Assembly: GCF_003334335.1 (NCBI RefSeq)
Contig: NZ_QOWQ01000179.1
Length of the DNA stretch: 506 nucleotides
Reading direction: 5' to 3' (one strand)
Origin: Escherichia coli
GTDB taxonomy: Bacteria > Pseudomonadota > Gammaproteobacteria > Enterobacterales > Enterobacteriaceae
The position numbers and the translations under genes are program-made. The notes beneath the pieces are model-generated. The model searched no databases. It was not told where the DNA came from and saw nothing but the letters and a program-made list of their open reading frames with translations. Shown here one piece after another: positions 1 to 506 of this stretch. Positions within the stretch are counted from its first letter, which is position 1; each line of letters opens with the position of its first letter.

Positions 1-506
1 CTGAGCTCGGTTTCAAGCGCCAGCATGGCTGCATGCGCCCGGTCTTCCTGGCGCTCACCGGCAGACACCTTCACACCGGACGGCTTTTTCTGCGTCGACT
101 CATAATCCTTTTTTGCCGACGCCATCAGCGTGTTGTAATCCGCCTGCAGGATTTTCCCGTCTTTCAGGGCCTTATTCAGCTCTTCCTGCCGGGCGGTATA
201 TTTCTCCAGTGGCGTCAGCAGGCGCTCATACGCCTTCTGCGCCTCTCCGGTATACTTCAGCTGTGACGACTCACGCTCAGCCCTGTCCCTTGCCGCCAGT
301 TCACCGGCTTTTTCCATATCCGACTGCAGCGTTGCCGCTGCCAGACCCAGACGGGCATTTTCCCGGTCATCCCATGCGCCCTGAAGGTTGGCCCGGAAAG
401 AGGAGGTTTTACCGCGGCGCTGGCTCCGGCTCTGGTACCACTGCCATTTTTTATCCGCCTCATCAAATGCCTTCTGCGCACTGGCGAGCATATCCGCTGA
501 GGATTC
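1..506 (-). CDS. H: Phage tail tape measure (tail length determination) protein, lambda gpH family; internal fragment, truncated at both window edges
   Basis: Seen directly: the minus-strand frame with first complete codon at 506..504 has no stop codon over 168 codons (506..3; bases 2..1 are a partial codon). Translation: ESSADMLASAQKAFDEADKKWQWYQSRSQRRGKTSSFRANLQGAWDDRENARLGLAAATLQSDMEKAGELAARDRAERESSQLKYTGEAQKAYERLLTPLEKYTARQEELNKALKDGKILQADYNTLMASAKKDYESTQKKPSGVKVSAGERQEDRAHAAMLALETEL. The two ORFs in the supplied track are shorter and lie in other frames. Composition is rich in A/E/K/Q/L/R, as expected for a helical tape measure protein, and GC is about 58.7% (297/506 by hand count). From memory, not a search: the stretch LKYTGEAQKAYERLLTPLEKYTARQEELNKALKDGKILQADYNTLMASAKKDYE closely matches the central region of phage lambda gpH, and the upstream WDDRE motif aligns at the same spacing (39 residues) as in lambda. 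The gene symbol H is the lambda name for this family; this is a homolog, not lambda H itself. Confidence 0.9.

Follow-up and report, generated by a model that had tools for sequence, protein, structure and literature searches.

The window, that is the whole stretch of 506 nucleotides of Escherichia coli DNA analysed here, lies within a tail tape measure gene. When all six frames are compared, only the minus-strand frame starting at base 506 is open over the whole window, the remaining five being closed or containing merely short overprinted open reading frames. The open frame has neither a start nor a stop codon within the window, and positions 1-506 (minus strand) constitute an internal fragment of the gene, codons 319-486 of 857. 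The chromosome of E. coli 2015C-3121 (NZ_CP027340.1) contains the window with 100% identity, as nucleotides 955-1460 of a 2,574-nt coding sequence for an 857-residue protein annotated as 'phage tail tape measure protein' (WP_032308824.1; coding sequence at 5047-7620 and window at 6001-6506 of locus L001). A 504-nt match of 100% identity is also found in phage PhiR5_1. The gene sits in an E. coli prophage and, according to the annotation of NZ_CP027340.1 and PhiR5_1, in a canonical tail module with the order Z, U, V, G, T, H, M, L, K, I, J. Its place after the G/T chaperone genes and before M-L-K-I-J is that of a tape measure gene of the lambda family. The family model TIGR01541 recognises residues 476-817 of the protein with 359 bits (curated cutoff 104.75), phrog_24 ('tail length tape measure protein') scores 1133 bits with the full protein and E=3.9e-33 with the fragment alone, the lambda tape measure chain PDB 8iyk_H aligns with 1412 bits (residues 1-857 to 1-853), and PF09718 and PF06791 are precomputed for P0001, a protein identical to the product of the window's gene. 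Moreover, the protein is collinear with lambda gpH from end to end (857 versus 853 aa), at 78% identity. The gene is a lambda gpH-type tail tape measure gene and as such already well known, and family models, homology to lambda gpH, annotation and tail module context all agree with the assignment made in the initial sequence-only reading. Relatives of the window stretch are present in 2,631 of 5,426 complete E. coli genomes, about half. A non-coding feature in the window was ruled out, as Rfam gave zero matches at E <= 1 and no promoter- or terminator-like sites were found in the window. In PhiR5_1 (PV340545.1) the tape measure gene is represented by two coding sequences, 3047-5380 and 5380-5619 (L002 3047-5619), both called 'tail length tape-measure protein H', which points to a frameshift or stop close to the 3' end, or to a split of the annotation, as compared to the single 857-aa coding sequence of the prophage.

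Two parts of the window differ in their relation to lambda. Positions 1-265 (minus strand, residues ~399-486) form a conserved central helical block common to lambda gpH, with nearly invariant columns (LKYTxEAQKAYERLxTPLEKYTARQEELNKALKDGKILQADYNTLMA...) and 87-93% nucleotide identity to lambda. Positions 266-504 (minus strand, gene nucleotides ~957-1195, residues ~319-398) constitute a divergent, recombinationally exchanged cassette, which is 6 residues longer than the lambda version and only 20-62% identical to lambda H at the nucleotide level versus 80-100% in the flanks. Many E. coli BLAST matches start at query position 239, the cassette boundary. L084 is 100% identical to the lambda-type L085 from nucleotide 1196 on and yet carries the window-type cassette, and this combination of a lambda-type backbone with a window-type cassette indicates that the cassette was exchanged by recombination. 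Mosaicism is commonplace in lambdoid phages. The window-type cassette is found in ~1,228 of ~2,641 E. coli records with the tape measure gene family. Lambda gpH itself (PDB 8iyk chain H; PF06791 and PF09718; TIGR01541) is, like the product of the window's gene, encoded between G/T and M, shares the Gly-rich C-terminal region and has an almost identical EAQKAYERL central block, but it carries a different allele of the cassette at residues ~319-398.

Within this gene fragment, exactly two plus-strand copies of the 11-mer GCCTTCTGCGC occur, at 232-242 and 469-479 of the window, their starts being 237 nt (79 codons) apart. Read on the coding (minus) strand, where the repeat reads GCGCAGAAGGC, both copies are divided into GCG CAG AAG GC and encode A-Q-K-A. 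More precisely, in coding order copy 1 (469-479) encodes A328-Q-K-A331 in the context SAQKAFDE and lies within the divergent cassette, being lineage-specific, and copy 2 (232-242) encodes A407-Q-K-A410 in the context EAQKAYERL, ~20 nt inside the block conserved in lambda H. String search, frame check and translation confirm what had been read from the letters alone: the exact 11-bp direct repeat in the same frame, 237 bp or 79 codons apart, the encoded A-Q-K-A in EAQKAY and SAQKAF, and a spacing that is a multiple of three, such that exchange between the copies would amount to an in-frame change of 79 codons. Beyond the exact 11-mer, similarity of the two copies at the DNA level reaches just 15 of 17 nt. 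In the 857-aa protein AQKA is found three times, at residues 55, 328 and 407, and two of these three sites are identical DNA. The interval between the repeat copies overlaps the cassette almost exactly, copy 1 being situated ~25 nt inside its left edge and copy 2 ~20 nt past its right edge. Comparison of the copy positions with the cassette edges gave no sign of the 11-mers having served as joints of the cassette exchange, and the overlap is taken as a coincidence. The window contains one copy of another exact in-frame 11-mer repeat, GGCGGATAAAA (…A-D-K…), at 449-459 (minus strand), at a distance of just 10 nt from repeat copy 1. The other copy is located outside the window (L001 5937-5947), 111 nt or 37 codons further upstream in the gene, and the two start at gene nucleotides 891 and 1002. 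This pair shows that exact in-frame 11-mer repeats are common in the tape measure gene.

How often would such a repeat be expected by chance? An exact 11-mer direct repeat turns up at least once in 4.2% of mononucleotide shuffles of the window, in 10.4% of its codon shuffles (9.0% in frame) and in 32% of sequences in which the window's protein is kept fixed and synonymous codons are resampled from the usage of the gene, and 35% of the 168-codon windows of the real gene contain one. An expectation of zero applies to the particular 11-mer GCCTTCTGCGC and not to any 11-mer. The whole gene contains five exact repeats that are 11 nt or longer, compared to 2.1 +/- 1.5 in codon shuffles (P = 0.06), and, with the protein fixed, 7 identical 11-mer pairs versus 4.0 +/- 2.6 expected (P = 0.16). 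Since all five repeats are in frame, being in frame carries little information. At the protein level there is no excess of repeated tetrapeptides (7 observed versus 9.8 +/- 3.1 in shuffles). The protein is composed of 14.5% Ala, 7.7% Gln and 5.6% Lys and the region is helical, and in its gene CAG accounts for 63 of 66 Gln codons (95%), and Ala is most often encoded by GCG. Where AQKA occurs at two sites, this codon usage makes their 11-mers identical with a probability of 0.15. Very probably, therefore, A-Q-K-A recurs in the Ala/Gln/Lys-rich helical region by composition alone, and the strong bias for CAG and GCG then renders two of the three AQKA sites identical at the DNA level. With the protein fixed, the whole gene (L001 5047-7620) also contains 27 identical 10-mer pairs versus 12.8 +/- 4.7 expected (P = 0.005) and 21 identical tri-codon pairs versus 10.1 +/- 3.3, and tripeptide pairs are not in excess (154 versus 141 +/- 13), suggesting context-dependent codon choice and not peptide repeats. 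As codon choice is thus not independent between sites, a null model of independence somewhat understates the chance of repeats, and the 10-mer excess favours rather than opposes an explanation by chance. A codon-level first-order Markov null was discarded, as it overshoots (29 expected 11-mer pairs) and copies real codon pairs.

The fate of the repeat in close relatives, 77 IMG/VR sequences of at least 92% identity, points in the same direction. Both exact 11-mers are kept in 46 of them and one copy is lost in the other 31 (40%), mostly through synonymous changes. Copy 1 reads GCA CAG AAG GC in 18 of the 77 (GCG>GCA, synonymous), and the exact 11-mer of copy 2 is gone in 13, in 7 of which AAA replaces AAG synonymously. 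The peptide AQKA is found at site 1 in all 77 relatives and at site 2 in all 70 that are readable there. The DNA of the repeat is conserved no further than the protein demands, and its synonymous decay in 31 of 77 relatives means that nothing maintains it as a repeat. At the position of copy 1 lambda reads AEAA, so that lambda has no repeat, and L084 reads AEKA; lambda, L084 and L085 all carry the 11-mer of copy 2. Since copy 1 is absent from lambda and L084 and the block with copy 2 is shared, the exact repeat is a recent, lineage-specific coincidence.

The sequence-only reading had proposed that the repeat reflects a periodic helical sequence of tape measure proteins and had suggested a self dot-plot of the full-length protein as a check. 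Along the diagonal with an offset of 79 residues the best ungapped score is 34 over 35 residues, which ranks 15 among the offsets and is below the best off-diagonal score in shuffled proteins (40.6 +/- 4.6); even the top self-diagonal score of 50 is near the shuffled 95th percentile of 49, and the self-diagonals therefore do not reveal any significant wider internal repeat. Fourier analysis detected only the 3.6-residue hydrophobic periodicity of an amphipathic helix (z = 5.3, residues 280-640) and no periodicity of 11, 18, 40 or 79 residues, the aromatic periodicity at 11 and 18 residues having z < 1. The proposed periodicity thus finds no counterpart in the protein. Tape measure proteins made of repeat units, with W/F residues recurring at 11 or 18 residues (Belcaid et al. 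2011, PMC3271669; TP901-1, PMC5099701), are likewise tail rulers and largely alpha-helical, and gain or loss of repeat units has been proposed for these as a natural route to different tail lengths (PMC3271669, PMC5099701), the idea that the sequence-only reading carried over to the present repeat, albeit W/F repeat patterns are found in only ~5% of annotated tape measure proteins (PMC3271669). The protein encoded at the window, unlike these, has no W/F units, no 11/18 periodicity and no significant internal similarity. Neither of two published ProSite-style W/F patterns (PMC3271669) matches it, and it lacks both the series of seven or more W/F markers at spacings of 11 or 11-11-18 residues and the tandem repeats by which the repeat-unit class is defined. 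Periodic ruler units of 11, 18 or 40 residues were ruled out by the Fourier analysis and the W/F pattern searches.

For lambda, deletions and duplications in gene H are known to shorten and lengthen the tail in proportion (PMC1796659 and PMC12617516, with reference to Katsura & Hendrix 1984 and Katsura 1987), and tail length responds similarly to deletions and duplications in the tape measure protein of TP901-1 (PMC5099701). The general principle that tape measure length sets tail length, on which the sequence-only reading had built, is therefore established for lambda H by this earlier work. By analogy to this literature the product of the window's gene would lie as a helical ruler within the tail tube and determine how long the tail becomes. 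PMC1796659 equates 114 aa with ~17 nm, i.e. ~0.15 nm per residue, and on this scale a change of 79 residues would be expected to alter the tail by ~12 nm or ~9%.

The sequence-only reading had further supposed that recombination or slippage between the two copies would create length variants, and that indel boundaries in homologous genes might coincide with the repeats. The deletion junction (…CTCGCCAGT-GCGCAGAAGGC-GTATGAGCG…) and the duplication junction (…ACCGGAGAG-GCGCAGAAGGC-ATTTGATGA…) predicted for exchange between the copies were built synthetically and searched for. In BLAST searches of 5,426 complete E. coli genomes no match spanned the deletion junction among 4,386 places, the best matches covering positions 21-131 only, which is the wild-type arrangement, and no match spanned the duplication junction among 1,898 places, the best matches covering 1-117 only. 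Similarly, exact patterns for the two junctions had zero matches in IMG/VR and, in scans run without a positive control, zero matches in JGI metagenome contigs; these exact-pattern scans of metagenomes tolerated only one degenerate position each, and diverged junction variants would be missed by them. All but one of the 120 nearest protein clusters have a length of exactly 857 aa, the exception being P0002. The 77 close relatives have indels at residues 460, 518, 571, 711-718, 790 and 839 only and none within residues 328-407, and pairwise global alignment of 105 full-length representatives at 28-55% identity to the reference, in which indel positions are approximate at such identity, yielded no indels of 70-90 residues and many length differences of 10-23 residues in the 320-359 bin. 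Three IMG/VR sequences (L054, L059, L062) have a 23-residue in-frame deletion at residues ~714-736 in a Gly/Ala/Ser-rich segment (GGAFGGGASAS…), close to the site of lambda gpH to gpH* cleavage, and four others (L043, L069, L077, L080) have a divergent patch at residue ~518 that is 7 residues longer. The length variants at ~714-736 and ~518 thus locate natural length variation there and not at the repeats. In none of these surveys did an indel boundary coincide with the repeats, and with neither homolog indels at their boundaries nor a wider internal repeat the supposition gives way to chance, which the sequence-only reading had named as the consequence of such an outcome.

One relative, P0002 (L086; draft GCA_900479735.1), is 908 aa long owing to a perfect in-frame tandem duplication of 147 nt (49 codons) at L086 2685-2978, near the 3' end of the gene and in the C-terminal part of the protein. 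The duplication is bounded by three copies of an 11-mer, GCGCAGATGCG (A-Q-M-R), at L086 2689, 2836 and 2983, and the parental arrangement with two copies of GCGCAGATGCG is present in 24 of the 77 IMG/VR relatives. In a BLAST search, the P0002 duplication junction was found in 0 of 5,426 complete E. coli genomes, with wild-type coverage of 1-115; meant as a positive control, this search shows the duplication to be a singleton and does not validate sensitivity, although on wild-type arrangements all three junction searches behaved as intended. The singleton comes from a draft assembly and was seen in 2 samples. In-frame duplications bounded by short repeats can occur in the tape measure gene family, and the P0002 duplication says nothing specific about the repeat at 232 and 469. 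The mechanism proposed in the sequence-only reading is hence plausible in general and finds no support at this repeat.

Taken for itself, the pair of 11-mers is very probably a chance coincidence inside an ordinary tape measure gene of the lambda family and has no function of its own. Could it instead go back to an ancient duplication of a ~79-residue unit within the ruler region? AQKA[FY][DE] is found at both copies, each AQKA is preceded by RPESS or RESS at a distance of 11 residues, the ungapped score at offset 79 extends over 35 residues and the BLOSUM autocorrelation at this offset is ~1.7 sd above the mean. However, 14 offsets score higher, the score of 34 remains below the shuffled best, a 79-residue periodicity is missing and DNA similarity ends after 15/17 nt. 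In addition, copy 1 is the derived one, as judged from AEAA in lambda and AEKA in L084, suggesting that the identity of the copies goes back to recent convergence and is not a retained ancestral state. Self-diagonal scores, the 15/17-nt limit and the derived copy 1 ruled this candidate out, and a duplication origin has to be considered highly improbable. It is just as improbable that A-Q-K-A-[F/Y]-[D/E] is a recurring functional motif, contacting for example the tail tube or the G/GT chaperones, of which the DNA repeat is a by-product. Such a motif would be consistent with AQKA[FY][DE] being invariant at the two sites among the 77 relatives, wherever it could be read, as their DNA drifted, and with the invariance of AQKA 55-58 and EAQKAYERL 406-414 across lambda, L084 and L085. 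Albeit, site 1 is unconserved outside the sublineage, where the same AEAA and AEKA are found, the three AQKA sites share only the tetrapeptide, with GISV following at the residue 55 site, and the recurrence of tetrapeptides is at or below the expectation from composition. Furthermore, replacing whole repeat units of the TP901-1 tape measure protein by alanines had little effect (PMC5099701), arguing that side-chain-specific motifs are not generally required.

A role of the repeat itself as standing microhomology, at which slippage or illegitimate recombination occasionally generates in-frame 79-residue deletions or duplications and thereby tail variants of ~12 nm on which selection could act, is very unlikely, even though the arithmetic of an in-frame change of 79 codons is correct. 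Replication slippage that deletes or duplicates sequence between short direct repeats is a classical microhomology-mediated rearrangement, and 11-nt repeats 237 nt apart are formally a possible substrate as in those systems; the difference is that here no product was found at the site in the collections searched. The tolerance of lambda H for internal deletions and duplications with proportional tail length (PMC1796659), the same tolerance of TP901-1 (PMC5099701), and the 147-nt tandem duplication in P0002 bounded by another 11-mer would all agree with this role. Set against it are the lack of a spanning junction in the 5,426 complete E. coli genomes, IMG/VR and JGI metagenomes, the uniform length of 857 aa in all nearest clusters besides P0002, the absence of indels from residues 328-407 in 77 relatives, the synonymous decay of the repeat in 40% of these, and the absence of the P0002 duplication itself from every one of the complete genomes. 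RecA-dependent recombination in E. coli needs ~23-27 bp to be efficient, well above the 11 bp of the repeat, so that only very rare slippage would be possible. The window's gene offers four more pairs of 11 nt or longer that are equally good slippage substrates. A broader version, in which scattered in-frame microhomologies including the GCGCAGAAGGC pair are a low-frequency source of viable tail-length variants, with the GCGCAGATGCG duplication as an example, also has to be regarded as very unlikely. If it were true, an event at the window's repeat would excise almost exactly the exchanged cassette (residues ~319-398), and the cassette would be a dispensable, adjustable spacer of the ruler.

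Of the sequence-only reading, then, the gene, the frame and the general link of tape measure length to tail length stand, and the claims of periodicity and of repeats as indel boundaries fall. With chance as the preferred explanation, the finding itself matters little, the gene being well understood and the repeat a by-product of composition and codon bias. Its use is a more general one. Searching for synthetic junctions provides a quick general test of claims of this kind, and exact in-frame 11-mers occur frequently in genes of this type. As about one window in three contains such an 11-mer, a repeat of this sort in a tape measure gene is not to be taken as a recombination substrate or as a sign of periodicity unless junction evidence accompanies it.
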